A stretch of DNA of 57,135 nt from the NCBI GenBank assembly GCA_004377005.1, contig SOIV01000160.1:1-57135 (forward strand). The letters are read 5' to 3'. Positions 6,416 through 48,518 of this stretch are shown here, in pieces. A model generated the notes under the pieces. The model was not told the DNA's origin. It made no database searches and saw only the letters and a list, made by a program, of their open reading frames with translations. Numbering within the stretch: the stretch's first letter is position 1; every line of letters begins with the position of its first letter. A program made the translations under genes and the position numbers. This DNA comes from Candidatus Aminicenantes bacterium (GTDB lineage: Bacteria > Acidobacteriota > Aminicenantia > Aminicenantales > Aminicenantaceae).

Positions 6416-8944
6416 TTAGAGATAATTCTCCATCTCATCGAACTGATGATATCGATAGACCTCATCCTCATGAGGAAGTATCTTTTCTTTAAAGACCGAG
6501 AAGTATTCCTCAGGGTTAGGAAGTTTACCCGAAAGAGCTGCTACGGCAGCCAGTTCTGCCGATCCCAGGTAAACGCGTGCTTTATCTCCCATACGATTAT
6601 CAAAGTTTCGAGTAGAGGTTGAAATAATGGTTACTCCAGGACGAACCCTGGCCTGATTCCCCATACAAAGGGAACAGCCGGGGATTTCAGTCCGGGCGCC
6701 GACGCTGGAATAAATCGAATAATACCCCTCTTTCATCAGCTGAGCCCTATCCATTTTTGTGGGGGGCGTTAACCAGATACGAGTATTGAGATATCCCTTA
6801 CCCTCAAAAATCTTTCCAGCTGCCCGGAAATGTCCGATGTTAGTCATACAGGACCCGATGAAGATCTCGTCGATCTTGTCACCTGAAACATCAGAAAGGA
6901 GTCTCACATCATCAGGGTCATTGGGGCAAGCCACGATCGGCTCCTTTATATTTGCAAGGTTTATCTCAAGAACGGCTGTATACTTAGCATTATCATCTCT
7001 TCTTAGAAGCGCTGGTTTTTCTAACCATTCCTGACAGGCTTCTATCCTTCTCTGCAGAGTATTAGCATTCTGGTAACCGTCCTTTATCATTCTTTTCATT
7101 AAAGCAATATTGCTTCTCAGATACTTGCTAACGCTCTCGCTACTCAGGGCGACAGTCCCTCCTGCTGCAGAACGCTCAGCAGTGGCATTTGTCAGCTCAA
7201 ATGCCTGCTCCACTTCCAGGTTGGGCAATCCTTCCATTTCAATAATTCGGCCGTTAAAAATATTTTTTTTGCCCTCTTTAGCTACCGTCAACAGCCCCTC
7301 TTGGATAGCAAAATAGGGAATAGCATTTACCACATCTCTCAGGGTTATTCCGGGATTAAGCTCGCCCTTGAATTTCACCAGGACTGAATCAGGCATATCC
7401 AGGGGCATAAAACCGAGAACCCCTGCAAAAGCAACGAGGCCAGAGCCTGCTGGAAAGCTGAGCCCGATGGGGAAACGGGTGTGGGAATCACCAGCAGTTC
7501 CCAGTGTGTCAGGAACCAAGAAGCGATTCATCCAGGAATGTATAATCCCATCACCGGGTCTAAGGGCTACACCTTTTCGTTCCGTAATGAACTCGGTAAG
7601 CGATTTATGCATTTTGACATCTGCAGGCTTTGGGTAGGCGGCGGTATGACAGAAGGACTGCATGAACAAATCTGCCTGGAATTCCATACAGGCAAGTTCT
7701 TTCAATTCATCCGCAGTCATCGGGCCTGTAGTATCCTGAGAACCGACCGTCGTCATCTTCACATCACAGGCAGCACCTGGGAGTATACCTTCTAAGCCAC
7801 AGGCTTTCTCTACAATCTTTTGGGCCAGGGAATATCCCTGCCCTGGTTCTGGCGTAGGTCTCTCAAGAACTGTGAAAAAATCTGCTTCGTCCTTTCCCAA
7901 GGCTTTTCGTGCTTTGGCAGTTAACGACCGACCTATAATAAGGCTAAGACGTCCTCCGGCGCGGTATTCATCCTTGATTGTCGCCGGCTGAAATTCAAAC
8001 GAGGCTATGACTTCCCCTGCTTCGTTAGCGATAGTCTGAAATTTTGTATCGATGGAGAGGATGTCGCCAGTCTTCATCTTCGCCACATCACACACAAGAG
8101 GCAGACCTCCGGAATCTTCTACTGTATTGAAGAAAATTGGAGCGATCAAACTCCCGATTACAACTCCTTCTTTGTGCTTGTTCGGCACAAAAGGAATATC
8201 CTCTCCAATGTGCCATAACAAGGAATTAGTAGCGGACTTTCTTGAAGAGCCAGTGCCCACAACATCAGCTACGAAAGCTACACGGTGCCCTTCGTTACGG
8301 AAATCTCTGATTGTATCGATCCCTCCCGGAAATCTCGTCTCTCCCATGGAGAGGGCATGAAAAGGGATGTCTGGCCTGTTCCAGGCATACTTTGCTGCGG
8401 ATAAATCATCGGTGTTAACCTCGCCATCAACTTTGAATACCTTGAGGGATAGCTTTTCTGGAAACTTCGGTCTGGAAAGGAACCAATCTCCATCCGCCCA
8501 GGATGTAAGAACCTCTTTTGCATAGCGGTTGCTTTTCGACATTTCAACAACCTTATCGAAAGCACTGTAAACCAGGATAATCTGCTTCAATGCTTTAGCG
8601 GACTCTCCAGCAAGTTCTTCGTCTTCCAAAAAGCCGAGCAAAGACTCTATATTATAACCTCCAAGCATTGTGCCCAGCAGAAAAACTGCCTCCGTTTTGG
8701 ATAATAACGGAGAAGAGACCTTTTTTTCTGCAACCTTTGTCAACCAGGCTGCTTTAACCTTTGCCGAAGCATCAACTCCTGGCGAAACCCTATTTCTTAA
8801 GAGGCTCAAAAGAAGCTCTTCCTTACCCGCGGGCGGATTTTCCAGCAGTTTACAAACTTCCTCGGTCTCTTCAGGGCTTAAAGGCAAAGGAGGAACTCCC
8901 TGTTTTTGCCTTTCAGCTTCATGTTTGAAATATGATTCCAGCAT
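6416..8944 (-). CDS. acnB: Aconitate hydratase B type (aconitase 2 / 2-methylisocitrate dehydratase)
   Basis: 842 aa. The N-terminal HEAT-like domain closely resembles AcnB (LENPPAGKEELLLSLLRNRVSPGVD...). The C-terminal aconitase Fe-S domain carries GSCMTN and CSLCMGNQARV cysteine motifs. Confidence 0.9.
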   Translation of the reverse strand: MLESYFKHEAERQKQGVPPLPLSPEETEEVCKLLENPPAGKEELLLSLLRNRVSPGVDASAKVKAAWLTKVAEKKVSSPLLSKTEAVFLLGTMLGGYNIESLLGFLEDEELAGESAKALKQIILVYSAFDKVVEMSKSNRYAKEVLTSWADGDWFLSRPKFPEKLSLKVFKVDGEVNTDDLSAAKYAWNRPDIPFHALSMGETRFPGGIDTIRDFRNEGHRVAFVADVVGTGSSRKSATNSLLWHIGEDIPFVPNKHKEGVVIGSLIAPIFFNTVEDSGGLPLVCDVAKMKTGDILSIDTKFQTIANEAGEVIASFEFQPATIKDEYRAGGRLSLIIGRSLTAKARKALGKDEADFFTVLERPTPEPGQGYSLAQKIVEKACGLEGILPGAACDVKMTTVGSQDTTGPMTADELKELACMEFQADLFMQSFCHTAAYPKPADVKMHKSLTEFITERKGVALRPGDGIIHSWMNRFLVPDTLGTAGDSHTRFPIGLSFPAGSGLVAFAGVLGFMPLDMPDSVLVKFKGELNPGITLRDVVNAIPYFAIQEGLLTVAKEGKKNIFNGRIIEMEGLPNLEVEQAFELTNATAERSAAGGTVALSSESVSKYLRSNIALMKRMIKDGYQNANTLQRRIEACQEWLEKPALLRRDDNAKYTAVLEINLANIKEPIVACPNDPDDVRLLSDVSGDKIDEIFIGSCMTNIGHFRAAGKIFEGKGYLNTRIWLTPPTKMDRAQLMKEGYYSIYSSVGARTEIPGCSLCMGNQARVRPGVTIISTSTRNFDNRMGDKARVYLGSAELAAVAALSGKLPNPEEYFSVFKEKILPHEDEVYRYHQFDEMENYL

Positions 8945-9021
8945 TATCGCTTCTCCGTGTATATTTTGCTTTGATTAGTATACTGTATAAAATGTTTGTA
9001 CTTATTTGTCAAAATCATTTT

Positions 9022-9279
9022 ACCTGAATTATTCATAAGATATGCCGACACTATATATTATTTTCAATGATATTAGCTCTTTAGGTAGGTTTTTCTCAAG
9101 ATCAAGATTCAAACTTTCTTTTATGTCCATTAATTCATTCTATGTCGGCATCTTTTACCTTTCAGGCGAGCCGATCTCACTGCATCTGCTTCGTTGCGGC
9201 CCAATCGCGGTGAAAAACCACAGCTTCATGGGCCGACGCCTCGCATCTACAGCAACTTCGACTCGTGAATAATCCAGGT
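9022..9279. repeat. 258-bp TIR-bounded repeat element, copy A (candidate MITE or structured RNA)
   Basis: Terminal inverted repeats ACCTGAATTATTCA (9022-) and TGAATAATCCAGGT (-9279). Internal pairing of ATGCCGACA (9042-9050) with TGTCGGCAT (9143-9151), and a stem 9197-9203/9229-9235. A second copy of identical length lies at 18650-18907. Confidence 0.8.
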
Positions 9280-9291
9280 TTATAAAAGAAG

Positions 9292-9450
9292 AAAATGGGG
9301 ACAGGCTACTTTTTTCTCACAGCCAATTCACTCTTCCTTGCCTAAATTAATCGTCATGGCGGGCAACTTATAGAGTATATCAATATCAAGGTGTTGTTAG
9401 AAAATCATGGACTGACTTTCTAATATAAAAAAGTAGCCTGTCCCCTTTTT
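9292..9450. repeat. Inverted-repeat-bounded element of the 'AAAA(A/T)GGGGACAG' family
   Basis: GGGGACAGGCTACTTTTTT (9297-9315) is the perfect reverse complement of AAAAAAGTAGCCTGTCCCC (9427-9445). These arms enclose about 110 nt containing GTCATGGCGGGCAAC, which is related to a word in the 23811-24203 element. Confidence 0.75.
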
Positions 9451-9550
9451 ATTAACGTCGGTTTCATGAGTTGATTTTCATTGAAAAAAATTATAATATT
9501 CATTTTCCGTTTTTATTCATTCATATACTTTATAATAGGGAGGCTTAATC

Positions 9551-10753
9551 ATGGATAATAGCGCAATTGAGAAGGCAAAAGATCATTTTAGCCAGATTAT
9601 CGAAGACCAGCTAAGCCGCGTTGAGGCAATGAAAAAAGCTGCGGATTGGATTGATTATTCTCAAGTAAAACCCATCATCGTTGGAGTCATAGGCGGAGAT
9701 GGAATTGGTCCTTCTATCGCCAAAGAATCACGCCGCATTCTGGAATTCCTGCTTCAGAAGGAAATAGAAAAAGGGGAAGTTAAGATTCGGGATATAGAAG
9801 GGCTAACGATAGAAAACCGTTCCAAACATAAGAAAGCTATTCCTGATGATGTCCTGGAAGAGATTAAAAAATGCCACGTTACACTTAAGGGCCCAACCAC
9901 AACGCCTAGAAAAGGGGATCCCTGGCCTAATATTGAGAGTGCCAACGTTGCTATGCGGCGCTACTTAGACCTTTTTGCCAACGTGAGACCCGTAAAAGTC
10001 CCTAAAGAAGGAATAGACTGGATGTTTTTCCGAGAAAACACAGAAGGCGCTTATATCTTGGGGAGTAAAGGAATCAATGTCACTGATGATCTAGCCTTTG
10101 ACTTTAAAGTTATCACTACTCAAGGCGCAGAGAGAATTATCCGTTTGGCTTTTGATTATGCCCAAAAAAATAAAATTAACCGAGTCACTATTGTAACAAA
10201 GGCCAATGTGATTAAAACCTCTGATGGAAAATTTTTAGATATCGGCTATAAGATTGCTAAAGAATATCCTGAGATCGAATGCGACGATTGGTACATCGAT
10301 ATCATGACCGCTAAGCTTGTGGATCCCAAGCGCAGGACCCAATTCAGGGTTGTCGTCCTCCCCAACCTTTATGGAGATATCCTTACTGACGAAGCTGCTG
10401 AATTCCAGGGAGGTGTTGGAACTGCTGGAAGTGCCAATATCGGAAAACAGTATGCCATGTTTGAAGCAATCCACGGTTCTGCCCCCCGTATGGTTAAAGA
10501 GGGGCGAGCTCAGTACGCAGATCCATGCAGCATGATTCGAGCTGCAGCCTTACTGATCAGCCATATAGGCTATCCTGAAAGAGGAAAAAACCTAGAAATG
10601 GCGCTGGATATTTGCGGCCAATATGAGAAGAAACTGGTTATAACTGGCCGAGATACTGGATGTGCTGGAGCAGAATATGCCAACTACCTCATGGAAACTC
10701 TTCAGAACCCTGGACTGAAAGATAAGTGGGAAAGCTACACAAAACAGCTTTGA
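9551..10753 (+). CDS. icd: Isocitrate/isopropylmalate dehydrogenase family, probable isocitrate dehydrogenase
   Basis: 400 aa with the motifs GGDGIGPSI and NLYGDILTDEAAEFQGGVGTAGSANIG. The TCA-gene context favours IDH. It has an N-terminal extension of about 40 aa, and its cofactor specificity is unknown. Confidence 0.75.
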   Translation: MDNSAIEKAKDHFSQIIEDQLSRVEAMKKAADWIDYSQVKPIIVGVIGGDGIGPSIAKESRRILEFLLQKEIEKGEVKIRDIEGLTIENRSKHKKAIPDDVLEEIKKCHVTLKGPTTTPRKGDPWPNIESANVAMRRYLDLFANVRPVKVPKEGIDWMFFRENTEGAYILGSKGINVTDDLAFDFKVITTQGAERIIRLAFDYAQKNKINRVTIVTKANVIKTSDGKFLDIGYKIAKEYPEIECDDWYIDIMTAKLVDPKRRTQFRVVVLPNLYGDILTDEAAEFQGGVGTAGSANIGKQYAMFEAIHGSAPRMVKEGRAQYADPCSMIRAAALLISHIGYPERGKNLEMALDICGQYEKKLVITGRDTGCAGAEYANYLMETLQNPGLKDKWESYTKQL

Positions 10754-14738: not shown

Positions 14739-14870
14739 TGCAGGGGTTTGATTTATCTGATTTTTATTAATTGTAGGGGCTTGATTTATCTGCAGGAGCT
14801 TGATTCATCAAACATGGAAAAACAGGAAGTATCCTTTGTAGGGGCTTGATTTATCAAGCCCACCTTTTTT
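14739..14870 (+). repeat. Four degenerate tandem copies of the 'GTAGGGGCTTGATTTATC' word. The last copy forms a complete hairpin plus T-run, a likely sucD terminator.
   Basis: TGCAGGGGTTTGATTTATCTG, TGTAGGGGCTTGATTTATCTG, CAGGAGCTTGATTCATCAA and TGTAGGGGCTTGATTTATCAAGCCCACCTTTTTT. The palindrome GGGCTTGATTTATCAAGCCC lies at 14842-14861 and is followed by TTTTTT. Confidence 0.7.
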
Positions 14871-14909
14871 ATATGAGATGATTAAAAATATAAATCAAGG
14901 AGGTCTATC

Positions 14910-17612: not shown

Positions 17613-18632
17613 TCAAGATGTAAAATAGAAGTAATCATATACAAATTTGGCAATCTGAGCGATTATTTGGTCTACATCTTTTCCCTTCAAGGTCATATCT
17701 TTCGTAAAAATAGTCAAGGCTACCTGGCCCAAATTGTCAGGCAAGTAGATTATTCCGCTGTCGTTGACCGTTCCTCCGATTGTACCAGTTTTATGAGCAA
17801 CCTTTGTCCTACCTGGAAGGTCACCCTTGATTCTCCCCTTTCCTGTTTGACATTCAAGCATTACGGAAAGAATGAGATCACAGCTCTCCTCATTAAGCAC
17901 GTCTTTTTTGTAGATCATCTCTAAAAGCCTGTTCATAGCCCGAGGAGTACTCTGATCCTTCATTATCTGACTAAATTTTTTTTTAGCATCCTCAAAGGCT
18001 TCAGGATCCTTCTTTCTCTCAGCTCTGTAAACCTCAGAGAATTCATCAAGGGAAATTCCTTTGTATTTCTCATAATCCAATCCGACAAAATCCATTATAA
18101 GATGCTGGCATGTTCTGTTGACTGTAATCTTTCCTATCCCATAACTTCGAAGACGGTTGTTGACATTTTCAGCTCCAACCTTGGTCAAAAGAATATCTGT
18201 GGCTGAATTGTCACTGATGATCATCATCATGGTTATGAGGTTTCTCAAAGACAGCTTAATTCCCGGTGCCTCCAGGTCAGAAAGCATACCACTGCCAAGG
18301 TGCTGATCTGTCTTTTGGATGCTTATTTCATCTTTTAAGGTAAATTTCCCTTCTTTAATCTGAGCCAGAACTTCAACCAGAATAGGAACCTTAAAAACAC
18401 TGGCCATCGGAAAATTCATATCGCCGTTTATGTACAGCTCCTGGCCCGATTCCAAATGCTTGACGGCCACACCAACTTCCCCTTCTGTTCCGCGAATAAC
18501 CCCTTCTATCTGTTTTTTTAGTCTTTCGATTCCTGTTGGAGCTTGAGCTTCTTGTTCCGTCCAAACAGAAAACTGCATAAAGACGATAAAAAAAACTAAA
18601 AGAACTGTAATTTTAGATATTTTAGATCGCAT
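17613..18632 (-). CDS. Secreted class A beta-lactamase-like serine hydrolase
   Basis: 339 aa with a signal peptide. It has the SxxK (SVFKV), SDN (ISDNSATD) and KTG (HKTGT) motifs in the class A order. Activity on beta-lactams is not established. Confidence 0.72.
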   Translation of the reverse strand: MRSKISKITVLLVFFIVFMQFSVWTEQEAQAPTGIERLKKQIEGVIRGTEGEVGVAVKHLESGQELYINGDMNFPMASVFKVPILVEVLAQIKEGKFTLKDEISIQKTDQHLGSGMLSDLEAPGIKLSLRNLITMMMIISDNSATDILLTKVGAENVNNRLRSYGIGKITVNRTCQHLIMDFVGLDYEKYKGISLDEFSEVYRAERKKDPEAFEDAKKKFSQIMKDQSTPRAMNRLLEMIYKKDVLNEESCDLILSVMLECQTGKGRIKGDLPGRTKVAHKTGTIGGTVNDSGIIYLPDNLGQVALTIFTKDMTLKGKDVDQIIAQIAKFVYDYFYFTS

Positions 18633-18649
18633 ATACTCCTCCTCCGTTA

Positions 18650-18907
18650 ACCTGATTTATTCATAAATTATGCCAACACTGATATTTATTTTCATTGATA
18701 TCTGCTCGTTACTCTGATTTCACTTCTAGCATAACATTCAATCGGTCTCAAATGTTTTTCTTTTTATTATATGTCGGCATAATTTACCCTTCGGGCGGGC
18801 CGATTTCACCGCATCTGCTTCGTTACAGGGCATTTGCAGTGGAGAACCACAGCCGCATACCCTGTGCCTTGCATCTGCGGCAAACTCGATCCGTGAATAA
18901 TCCAGGT
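18650..18907. repeat. 258-bp TIR-bounded repeat element, copy B
   Basis: Same length, same termini (ACCTGATTTATTCA ... TGAATAATCCAGGT) and same conserved blocks (TATGTCGGCAT, GCATCTGCTTCGTT, CCACAGC) as 9022-9279. It sits 16 nt upstream of the beta-lactamase-like start, next to its GGAGGAGG RBS. Confidence 0.8.
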
Positions 18908-19003
18908 TAATAAATTTTATCTATTAATAAATCATATATTTCAGTTTTTCTCTGCGCTCTGTGATGAAATAAAATTCATTTCTACTCTACTCCAGTCAAT
19001 TTA

Positions 19004-36262: not shown

Positions 36263-37608
36263 TGGAAAAGGGAAAAAAGCCCATGAAGCTCAAAGAACTG
36301 GCAGAAAGCCTGGTGACTTTTGGAAAAGTCAACGGAGCGGATGAAGTTGAAATATCCATCTTGGACGGCTATGAATTCAGCGTCGATGTAAGATTGGGAA
36401 AAATAGAAAACCTGGTTGAGGCAGGTTCCAGGTCCTTGGGCTTGAGAGTCATCAAGGATAAAAAAACTGCCTTTGCCTCTTCTTCAGATTTATCCAAAGA
36501 GGCACTCGAGCATCTTGTGAAAAATGCCATAAAGCGGACGAAGTTAGCCAGCCCTGATGAATTCTCAGGACTCCCCGCTCTCTCAAAAAAAAGAGTTGAC
36601 ATCCCTTCCTTAAAGCTTTTTGACCCTGAAATCCCAAGCCTGGATTCAGAAAAGAAGATTGCTCTGGCTACAGAGACAGAAAAAATCGCTCTCGAGGATA
36701 AAAGAATCACAAACTCCCATGGATCAAGCTTTGAAACTACAGAAATAAGAATAATTTTTGCAAACTCGAACGGCTTCCTTGAGGAATACGAGCAAACATT
36801 TTGCGGCCTGAGTATTGGCCTCCTGGCTGGAGGAACAGACAATCAAGTTGAAGACTATTGGTCCTCCTCAAAGCTCCATTTCAAAGAATTAGATTCACCA
36901 GAAGAAGTCGCCAAAAAAGCAGTGGAGAGAACAGTGCGGCAAATTAAACCCAGGAAAATAAAGACACAAAAAGTTCCTGTTATCTTTGAACCTACGATGA
37001 CCTCCTGGCTTCTTGGTTTTCTTTTTGGATGTGTTTCTGGAGTGTCTATCTACAAGAAAACTTCCTTTTTGGTCGATAAGCTGGGAAAAAGGATTGGGAA
37101 TGAAAGAGTGACTGTTTATGACGACGGTCTTATGCCCGGAAGGCTGGGGACAAGACCTTTTGACGCCGAAGGTGTACCCAGCCAAAAAACTCTTGTTATG
37201 GATAAAGGAATTCTCAAAAACTACCTGTGCAACACTTACGCCGCCCGGAAACTGAAGCTCAAAGCAACAGGAAGCTCAAGCGGCACCAGTGTCAGTCCAA
37301 GTAATTTTTATCTTAAAGCCGGAAATACGCCTCCGGAAAAAATCGTCTCCTCCCTGGAAAAGGGCTTAATCCTTATCAGAACCATCGGGCATGGACTCAA
37401 TCCTGTAACCGGGGATATCTCCAGAGGAGCATTCGGCTTATGGGTTGAAAAAGGAGAAATTGTCTATCCGGTTTCAGAAATAACTATCTCCGGGAATCTC
37501 GGTGAAATCTTGAATAATATAGAAGTTGTTGGAAATGACCTTGACTTCCGGAGTCCCCTCGCCGGCCCGACAATAAAAATAAAGGAACTGACAGTAGCCG
37601 GCCAATAA
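36262..37608 (+). CDS. pmbA: PmbA/TldE family protein (TldD partner)
   Basis: 448 aa. The GTG start overlaps the tldD stop and has a GGGAGG RBS; an alternative ATG lies at 36283. PmbA_TldD fold without HExxxH, ending ...LTVAGQ. Confidence 0.88.
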   Translation: MEKGKKPMKLKELAESLVTFGKVNGADEVEISILDGYEFSVDVRLGKIENLVEAGSRSLGLRVIKDKKTAFASSSDLSKEALEHLVKNAIKRTKLASPDEFSGLPALSKKRVDIPSLKLFDPEIPSLDSEKKIALATETEKIALEDKRITNSHGSSFETTEIRIIFANSNGFLEEYEQTFCGLSIGLLAGGTDNQVEDYWSSSKLHFKELDSPEEVAKKAVERTVRQIKPRKIKTQKVPVIFEPTMTSWLLGFLFGCVSGVSIYKKTSFLVDKLGKRIGNERVTVYDDGLMPGRLGTRPFDAEGVPSQKTLVMDKGILKNYLCNTYAARKLKLKATGSSSGTSVSPSNFYLKAGNTPPEKIVSSLEKGLILIRTIGHGLNPVTGDISRGAFGLWVEKGEIVYPVSEITISGNLGEILNNIEVVGNDLDFRSPLAGPTIKIKELTVAGQ

Positions 37609-47983: not shown

Positions 47984-48180
47984 AGGGACATCCCCACAGA
48001 ATCATTCAGCTTATGGATTGAAGAAGGAGAAATTGTCTATCCTGTTTTAAGAATAATCATCTCCGGGAATCTGGGGGAATCCTGAATGATAGGGAAATAG
48101 TTAGAAATAATCTCGACTTTTGGACTGCCCTCTCCGGTCAGATAATTAAGACCAGCGAAATGACCGTAGCCGGGCAGTAA
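47984..48180 (+). pseudogene. Displaced, frameshifted duplicate of the last 198 nt of pmbA
   Basis: It aligns by hand to 37411-37608 with about 46 differences, including a 1-nt deletion. There is a shared 19-nt identical core AAGGAGAAATTGTCTATCC (37451-37469 / 48024-48042). Correcting the deletion gives ...GNLGE(I)LNDREIVRNNLDF...MTVAGQ*, ending at a TAA in the same position as pmbA. Confidence 0.85.
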
Positions 48181-48354: not shown

Positions 48355-48419
48355 TTCTTCTCCTCCTCCTTACCTCTTTATCCCTTAATACCCCCCCGGT
48401 ATAATAATCAATTCTGTAT

Positions 48420-48439
48420 GGGCTTGATTTATCAAGCCC
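48420..48439. repeat. Second complete copy of the GGGCTTGATTTATCAAGCCC palindrome
   Basis: Identical 20-nt palindrome, with the same flank (...CACCT), as at 14842-14861. Confidence 0.8.
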
Positions 48440-48518
48440 ACCTGTATTAAATCTAAGAAAGCATATCATTAATTCATCCTCACTTTTTAAGGATGATGTA
48501 AGCACCATGGGCAATTAG

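Follow-up and report, generated by a model that had tools for sequence, protein, structure and literature searches.

Bacillus, Neisseria, enterobacteria and pneumococci are known hosts of small mobile repeats that carry conserved RNA folds and affect the genes beside them. The Correia elements have 26-bp terminal inverted repeats (TIRs), a TA duplication and an IHF site. The effects of the ERIC/IRU, BOX, RUP and REP/BIME repeats depend in some cases on orientation, and the REP elements, which have neither TIRs nor a target-site duplication (TSD), are moved by RAYT enzymes. IS200/IS605 PATEs and omega-RNA modules lack TIRs and a TSD and insert 3' of a fixed tetra- or pentanucleotide motif. Correia elements are co-transcribed and modulate the genes next to them; RNase III binds or cleaves their RNA hairpin, and their ends can give rise to promoters (PMC2649163). 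The ERIC/IRU, BOX, RUP and REP/BIME repeats lie between genes and are transcribed, and the structure of their RNA has an effect on mRNA stability or expression; bcr1 is transcribed with an RNA fold that is kept by compensatory changes (PMC3184786).

The repeat described here is of the same kind as known transcribed miniature inverted-repeat elements (MITEs) with a compensatorily kept RNA fold, and may be compared with bcr1, Correia and ERIC. With bcr1 and the group A bcr repeats of the Bacillus cereus group it has in common that it is small, non-coding and mobile, is bordered by short direct repeats and varies in distribution among strains (PMC3184786). In both bcr1, for which transcription is known, and our element compensatory changes keep a multi-stem fold (PMC3184786). 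However, bcr1 is about 155 bp long, is flanked by 5-bp direct repeats, occurs in Firmicutes and shows no apparent sequence similarity to the element, which is about 255 bp long, has a 4-bp TTAR duplication, folds into a rod plus a stem around an AT-rich segment and resides in Aminicenantes. The Correia elements (CREE/NEMIS, Neisseria) resemble it in being high-copy, intergenic and gene-adjacent MITEs. Yet the Correia hairpin is made of the long TIRs themselves, whereas the main hairpin of our element is internal and apart from its 13-bp TIRs, and Correia ends can create promoters whereas no conserved promoter was found in the element. A Correia element was ruled out by the different sequence of the 13-bp TIRs and by the 4-bp TTAR TSD. 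ERIC/IRU, BOX, RUP and REP/BIME are unrelated to it in sequence, size and host. IS200/IS605 PATEs and omega-RNA or bridge-RNA modules have, as the element has, a structured RNA or hairpin on one strand, but the TIRs and the variable duplicated tetramer ruled out an IS200/IS605 PATE or omega-RNA module. The initial annotation had not recognised the repeat as any named RNA family, in agreement with Rfam 15, which gave no match at the gathering score over the whole window and chance-level matches only at E up to 10 for copy A and the canonical copy in locus L069. A survey of the literature on Aminicenantes miniature inverted-repeat elements yielded no description of it. For a major uncultured lineage, in which none was described, this is a well-defined mobile element of high copy number.

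In the window (the whole 57,135-nt stretch of DNA that was analysed), two copies of equal length had been annotated at 9022-9279 and 18650-18907. Both are real; they measure 258 nt as delimited there, are about 80% identical and have the same orientation. Their alignment shows a diverged AT-rich centre between conserved ends, the right half of both copies being GC-richer and conserved and the left half AT-rich and diverged. The 258-bp limits, however, were off by one base per side, because the outermost bases belong to the 4-bp TSD. The element proper runs from CCTG to CAGG and is 256 bp long in both copies, as established by the TSD analysis and by an empty site. TIR and profile searches detected no copies in the window beyond A and B.

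Copy A (9023-9278; nhmmer E = 6e-62 against the family profile) folds on the minus strand, which is the sense of acnB, and lies between identical TTTA tetramers at 9019-9022 and 9279-9282. Its left TIR (9023-9035, CCTGAATTATTCA) pairs with the right TIR (9266-9278, TGAATAATCCAGG) as the closing stem of the minimum-free-energy (MFE) fold of the minus strand. Next to the left TIR, the minus-strand stem P1 is formed by arms at 9042-9050 (ATGCCGACA) and 9143-9151 (TGTCGGCAT), which enclose the AT-rich variable segment (9051-9142), the P1 loop, where only weak sigma-70-like sites were seen in this copy. A small minus-strand hairpin at 9158-9166 (on the plus strand CCTTTCAGG, of the form CCY-TTC-RGG) is followed by the rod (9167-9265, minus strand), an irregular hairpin of about 100 nt with helices P2, P2', P3 and P4. 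The rod includes the helix on which the initial annotation had based its structural claim, and the coordinates given for it proved correct in both copies: CGGCCCA (9197-9203) with TGGGCCG (9229-9235) in copy A, and ACAGGG (18825-18830) with CCCTGT (18860-18865) in copy B. Copy B (18651-18906, 256 bp, minus strand; nhmmer E = 4e-60) is bordered by identical TTAA tetramers at 18647-18650 and 18907-18910 and has the same parts on the same strand: left TIR (18651-18663), P1 arms (18665-18678 and 18772-18785), small hairpin (18787-18795), rod (18796-18893) and right TIR (18894-18906). Its minus-strand fold, with TIR stem, rod, small hairpin and P1, has an energy of -95.1 kcal/mol (RNAfold).

The two minus-strand genes that had been placed 3' of the copies were identified as such by Pfam. 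Downstream of copy A is acnB, which encodes aconitase B (6416-8944, minus strand; Pfam Aconitase_2_N, Aconitase_B_N and Aconitase), with its start codon (8944) 77 nt from the left end of the copy as first delimited (9022). Downstream of copy B is a gene of the class A beta-lactamase family (17613-18632, minus strand; Pfam Beta-lactamase2, E = 7e-58), with 17 nt between its start (18632) and the left end as first delimited (18650); its ribosome-binding site (RBS), GGAGG, sits in the flank of copy B.

Both repeats belong to a MITE family that abounds in uncultured Aminicenantes. A scan of species-representative genomes with the pattern GCATCTGC-N55-85-GAATAATCCAGGT gave the further copies that the initial annotation had called for: at least 118 loci from at least about 40 species-level genomes. 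Among the matches listed, nearly all hosts are metagenome-assembled genomes (MAGs) of Candidatus Aminicenantes/Acidobacteriota, some six chance matches aside, with Ca. Aminicenans sakinawicola and MAGs under the name 'uncultured Eubacteriales' among them; the richest single genome among these matches holds at least 17 loci. A profile search returned at least 138 matches, and a later one at least 86 full-length copies, mostly of 253-258 bp. Because the pattern requires them, the first GCATCTGC and the right end are invariant throughout the sample, and part of the apparent invariance is imposed by the search; the covariation tests are unaffected. Many contigs stop exactly where the conserved right half begins, as expected because the repeat breaks assemblies; a model of the element would improve the annotation of Aminicenantes genomes.

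The suggestion of a novel MITE in the initial annotation was borne out by the TIRs, the 4-bp TSD, more than 100 copies and a pair of filled and empty sites. A parent element apart, it has all the traits that define a MITE. With 253-258 bp and neither a transposase nor a conserved coding frame, the element has the size of a prokaryotic MITE, and the 13-bp TIRs CCTGRAYTATTCA / TGAATAATCCAGG are present in all full copies. The ends can be given as CCTGGATTATTCA, with a 4-bp TTAR duplication. Target-site duplications were found on inspection of 81 copies: the 4-bp flanks were identical in 37 and matched at three or more of the four positions in 65, whereas the next 4 bp outward matched in only two of the 81 and randomly re-paired flanks averaged 10.6 matches. 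The tetramer is mostly TTAA, TTAG, TTTA or TTAT, TTAA being the commonest (13 times), and rare tetramers (TACA, TCAC, TATA, TTCA, TCAA and TAAT) are duplicated too. A 2-bp TA duplication of the IS630-like kind was rejected, since the variable 'first base' is itself duplicated, which makes the TSD 4 bp long. That the element moves follows from two related genomes, in one of which (L008) TTCA-[CCTG...CAGG]-TTTA occupies the place of a single TTTA in the other (L076). Apart from near-identical genomes, the flanks of different copies are unrelated; insertions are therefore lineage-specific, and orthologous retention was rejected. No gene was interrupted by the element among the retrieved copies.

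The MITE is a non-autonomous DNA transposon that would be mobilised in trans by a putative DDE-type transposase; a candidate enzyme would bind the 13-bp CCTG... ends and make a staggered 4-bp cut at TTAR. No transposase was found in 0.8 Mb of loci, whether between TIR pairs, beside shortened copies or in the window. TIR pairs 400-4000 bp apart enclosed only host genes, a relaxed TIR search returned noise, self-BLAST of all loci revealed no other long repeat, and the copies shortened to the rod are followed by host genes and not by a transposase. A 65-aa ORF adjoining the copy of locus L014 had no Pfam match. The CC... ends and the 4-bp duplication recall the IS1380 family, though no transposase found supports such a parent. 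The ends of IS1380 members begin with CC and their duplications are of 4-5 bp, whereas the IS5 group has a 4-bp duplication at YTAR but GG... ends. The ISEcp1 end, which we take to be CCTAGATTCTACGT, matches CCTGGATTATTCAC at nine of 14 positions, and IS1380 parentage is offered as a lead only.

On the plus strand, the parts of the element follow each other in the order left TIR (13 bp), P1 5' arm, AT-rich segment of about 85-90 nt, P1 3' arm, 3-bp hairpin CCY-TTC-RGG, rod of about 100 nt and right TIR. An A-run often precedes the P1 5' arm and a T-run often comes after the P1 3' arm. Among 76 full copies the AT-rich segment was the least conserved part, its length being kept and its sequence not. 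The repeat has a fold supported by covariation beyond shuffled and slid controls. In an alignment of 101 right halves from other genomes, the helix of the initial annotation and five others covary, so that the candidate structured RNA proposed there did not rest on chance pairing in two copies. An unbiased mutual-information scan of these right halves placed nested Watson-Crick pairs at the top, which correspond to P2, P2', P3 and the apical stem. Of all cells, 91.6% were paired as against 84.2% in shuffles, and none of 500 shuffles reached the observed value. The covariation score was 0.245 (0.123 in shuffles), double-sided changes were present in 21 of the 31 pairs, and double-change cells numbered 274 compared with 86 in shuffles, counts that overstate the independent events because the copies are related by descent. 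When the 3' partners were slid by 1-3 columns, only 25-38% of cells paired and the scores fell to 0.04-0.08. In the small hairpin, column pair 25:31 covaries (C:G 35, T:A 35). The helix first annotated, P3, exists in at least six mutually compensated versions, among them ACAGGGCA/TGCCCTGT, GCGGCCCA/TGGGCCG, GTGACCCA/TGGGTCAC, GCAAAGGA/TCCTTTGC and ATGAGACA/TGTCTCAT. P1 likewise has at least six compensated versions among subfamilies, with variants such as GGCGAT/ATCGCC, GTCGAT/ATCGAC, GCCGAT/ATCGGC, GCTGAT/ATCAGC and GGTTGC/GCAACC. An explanation by chance is untenable because there are many compensated states per helix and the slid controls collapse.

The fold is specific to the minus strand, the sense strand of the neighbouring genes. 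The initial annotation had seen a hint of this in imperfect pairs that favoured the minus strand by 4 to 1, and the larger sample agrees: in a pair set chosen regardless of wobble, plus-strand A:C pairs, which are G:U on the minus strand, outnumbered G:T pairs by 155 to 61. Transcription-linked mutation bias was discarded as the source of this excess, since unpaired columns show no matching bias per column (G>A 59 over five G columns, C>T 140 over 13 C columns). With three further plus-strand A:C pairs included, 95.0% of the cells pair on the minus strand versus 86.3% on the plus strand. RNAfold gave mean energies of -89.6 kcal/mol for the minus and -70.3 kcal/mol for the plus strand, the former being the more stable in all 86 of 86 copies. 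Mismatches between the TIRs are of the A:C type, which makes the closing stem continuous on the minus strand, and two conserved mismatch motifs, which on the plus strand would set pyrimidine against pyrimidine, form tandem G·A pairs on the minus strand (GCAGAUGC opposite GCAGAUGC, and GA/AG near the apex). For both window copies, the MFE fold joins the TIR stem, the rod, the small hairpin and P1 in one junction.

Concerning the gene context, for which positions were taken from a simple ORF-based gene call, the two ends of the element differ. Next to the left end lies a gene start in 55 of 74 cases and a gene end in the other 19; at the right end the figures are 23 for a start and 39 for an end (Fisher p = 1.4e-5). 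Of the copies between co-directional genes, 25 have the minus-sense orientation and 7 the opposite one. From the left end to the start codon the median distance is 23 nt, and it is often 3-20 nt, just 5' of the RBS as in copy B; this is the location of the mobile 5' leader that the initial annotation had envisaged for the two window copies. Start codons faced by the right end are farther off (median 87 nt), so that a native promoter can fit in between. The rod-only shortened copies lie 24-119 nt 5' of host genes in the same sense. The proteins encoded downstream (n=51) fell into 126 Pfam families, each with at most two members; aconitase B, H+-PPase, SRP54 and IspD are among them, and housekeeping functions are represented. 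A riboswitch or regulon was rejected on the basis of these 51 proteins, in which no function was enriched.

We consider it probable that the element is a selfish MITE, moved in trans by a putative transposase, which is read in the minus sense as a structured leader or intercistronic RNA. From the orientation and the wobble statistics we infer that it is co-transcribed in this sense with its host genes; transcription would read through from the host because no conserved promoter fits 5' of the rod inside the element. The surviving copies lie between genes, in an orientation in which host transcription would read the minus strand. The RNA would be a self-contained junction closed by the paired TIRs, with G:U pairs where the DNA repeats mismatch, and from this junction would extend the rod of about 100 nt with its two tandem G·A motifs, the 3-bp hairpin, and P1, which would sequester the AT-rich segment. 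Such a compact fold may allow the element to sit 3-40 nt from the start codons of housekeeping genes without abolishing their expression. Copies in the other orientation, or with the right end near a start codon, would be removed by selection, while lineages that keep the fold would persist and seed new copies, and compensatory changes would in this way accumulate between subfamilies. Its roughly 100 copies, its six covarying helices and the clear choice of strand make the element a strongly supported example of a MITE whose propagating lineages are constrained as a single-stranded fold, and a good system for asking whether selfish elements keep RNA structure for host compatibility, mRNA processing or the mechanism of transposition. 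By analogy with the Correia, ERIC, REP and bcr1 repeats, and with low confidence, the rod and closing stem may act as an RNA processing or stability module, for example as a target of a double-strand-specific RNase or as a protective structure. It is unlikely that the rod is a functional RNA module (a protein or RNase site, or a self-processing RNA) which the MITE would have spread 5' of dozens of unrelated genes; if true, these genes would share post-transcriptional control and constitute a mobile 5'-UTR regulon in an uncultured bacterial class.

The rod and P1 could also be explained at the DNA level, as subterminal structures that a purely selfish MITE presents to the transposition machinery or to host DNA-binding proteins in the form of cruciforms or transient single-stranded DNA, with the orientation bias arising from replication-linked or site-linked insertion. 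The TIRs, the TSD and the empty site are indeed those of an active DNA transposon, and the insertions are almost all lineage-specific, so that selection acts on propagating lineages, which fits a need in transposition. The minus strand is the coding strand of the neighbours and, for leading-strand genes, would be the lagging-strand template; gene orientation correlates with replication direction, and a DNA-level hairpin on that template therefore stays compatible with the orientation data. Moreover, G:T and G·A pairs are tolerated in single-stranded DNA too, which counts against a reading as RNA only. However, in DDE-type elements that have TIRs and a TSD it is double-stranded ends that are bound, and these elements are not known to need a 100-nt hairpin on one strand; start codons lie nearer to the left end (23 nt) than to the right end (87 nt), which suggests a constraint from gene expression and not from replication; and the combination of tandem G·A and G:U pairs is typical of RNA helices. 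We hold the DNA-level explanation to be unlikely. Donation of a promoter, which the initial annotation had listed, strikes us as rather unlikely. The AT-rich left half would drive the gene at the left end, and the rod would be conserved as a remnant of the 5' UTR of the parental transposase, outside the host mRNAs. The rod is the part farthest from the downstream gene, and a transcription start in the AT-rich segment, if there is one, would leave it out of the mRNA. Even between divergent genes, where a native promoter was necessarily displaced, the distance from the left end to the start codon is 3-40 nt, and minus-strand sigma-70-like sites cluster 30-50 nt from this end; those of the window copies are TTGAGA-18-TAATAT at 9099-9070 and ATGAAA-17-CATAAT at 18695-18667. 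A consistent site is nevertheless present at that position in only about one third of the copies, so that a conserved outward promoter was not established, and conservation is lowest in the AT-rich segment. Transcription from a native promoter beyond the element could equally read through it, no autonomous element with a rod was found in the 0.8 Mb of loci and the window, and continued selection on the minus-strand rod fold across MITE subfamilies would be left without explanation.

The strong covariation, the near-invariant internal loops with two tandem G·A motifs and the constant place in 5' leaders might suggest a dedicated functional RNA, that is, a riboswitch, a ribozyme, a protein-binding regulatory RNA or a small RNA gene, for which the MITE serves as vehicle. 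We find this quite improbable: the absence of a common function among the downstream genes argues against a ligand-specific riboswitch and the absence of space for a conserved promoter 5' of the rod against a self-contained sRNA gene, while Rfam gave no match up to E 10 and some of the invariance is imposed by the search pattern. Far less credible is a small protein encoded on the plus strand, even though about 40% of the copies have one stop-free plus frame of 76 codons, from around position 17 to the TAA of the right TIR, and the longest stop-free stretches have a median of 74 codons on the plus and 47 on the minus strand. Subfamilies, which are separated by single-base indels, do not share one open frame, and identical rod nucleotides fall into different frames; neither a start codon nor a ribosome-binding site is conserved, the substitutions obey base pairing and not codons, and the host genes run in the opposite direction. 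A coding role was rejected, the frame not being conserved.

Two further features concern the limits of the neighbouring transcripts and genes. No intrinsic terminator was predicted on either strand of either window copy; the P1 loop, of about 85-90 nt, is not that of the GC-rich, short-loop hairpin followed by a U-run by which such terminators are recognised. P1 with its flanking A-run and T-run, as present in most subfamilies, might in principle terminate transcription, and the window copies lack clean runs of either kind beside P1. At the right end, the stop codon of the upstream gene overlaps the duplicated TTA in eight cases, seven of them at -1 nt and one at 0.

The divergent intergenic region at window positions 8945-9550, which holds copy A of the main MITE, lies between two TCA-cycle genes. 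On its left is the aconitase B gene acnB (6416-8944, minus strand); the plus-strand gene on its right, at 9551-10753, belongs to the isocitrate/isopropylmalate dehydrogenase family. The region is filled by copy A together with a second inverted-repeat element (9289-9453), which is located 10 nt from copy A on its right side. This second element consists of two 27-nt arms, AAGAAAATGGGGACAGGCTACTTTTTT and AAAAAAGTAGCCTGTCCCCTTTTTATT, that show 93% complementarity and are separated by 111 nt, and it is unrelated to the main MITE. Its ends, GGGGACAGGCTAC, were also found as an inverted pair in two of the loci from the scan of species-representative genomes, namely L022 and L072; in the latter the pair (approximately 1197-1348) directly adjoins a main MITE copy. 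One lone match to these ends was located in L033. The 9289-9453 element may represent a second MITE family.

Truncated copies of the main MITE, in which only the rod (the irregular hairpin of the right half) and the right terminal inverted repeat (TIR) are kept, were identified at six loci: L062 (11-146), L107 (180-363), L038 (5091-5196), L085 (3214-3357), L063 (6656-6811) and L043 (5743-5832). Host genes begin 24 to 119 nt downstream of these rod-only copies, in the same sense as for full copies. Seven further loci (L027, L037, L092, L098, L101, L104 and L116) carry main MITE copies arranged back to back, with 2 to 4 nt from the end of one copy to the start of the next, which suggests insertion beside or into existing copies, or common hot spots.

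Among the main MITE copies, taking copy A (9023-9278) together with most of those in L001-L118, about 40% have one plus-strand frame that is stop-free over nearly the entire element, spanning 76 codons from approximately position 17 to a TAA within the right TIR. For the longest stop-free stretch, the median length was 74 codons on the plus strand versus 47 on the minus strand. This frame differs among the main MITE subfamilies and is not conserved, and therefore looks compositional rather than coding.

Full-length copies were also found on short contigs from a MAG labelled as a Methanosarcinales archaeon (L039) and from a Thermodesulfobacteriota MAG (L032), both placed in phyla unrelated to the usual hosts; these are more likely mis-binned Aminicenantes contigs than cases of horizontal transfer.

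Two other repeats were noted in the window. A short hairpin repeat, TGTAGGGGCTTGATTTATCAAGCCCACC, which may be REP-like or terminator-like, occurs at the distant sites 14837-14874 and 48415-48452 with 89% identity between them, and a weaker copy is located at 14772-14809. A 95-nt direct repeat (37412-37506 and 47985-48079; 83% identity, 10.6 kb spacing) probably lies within paralogous coding sequences.
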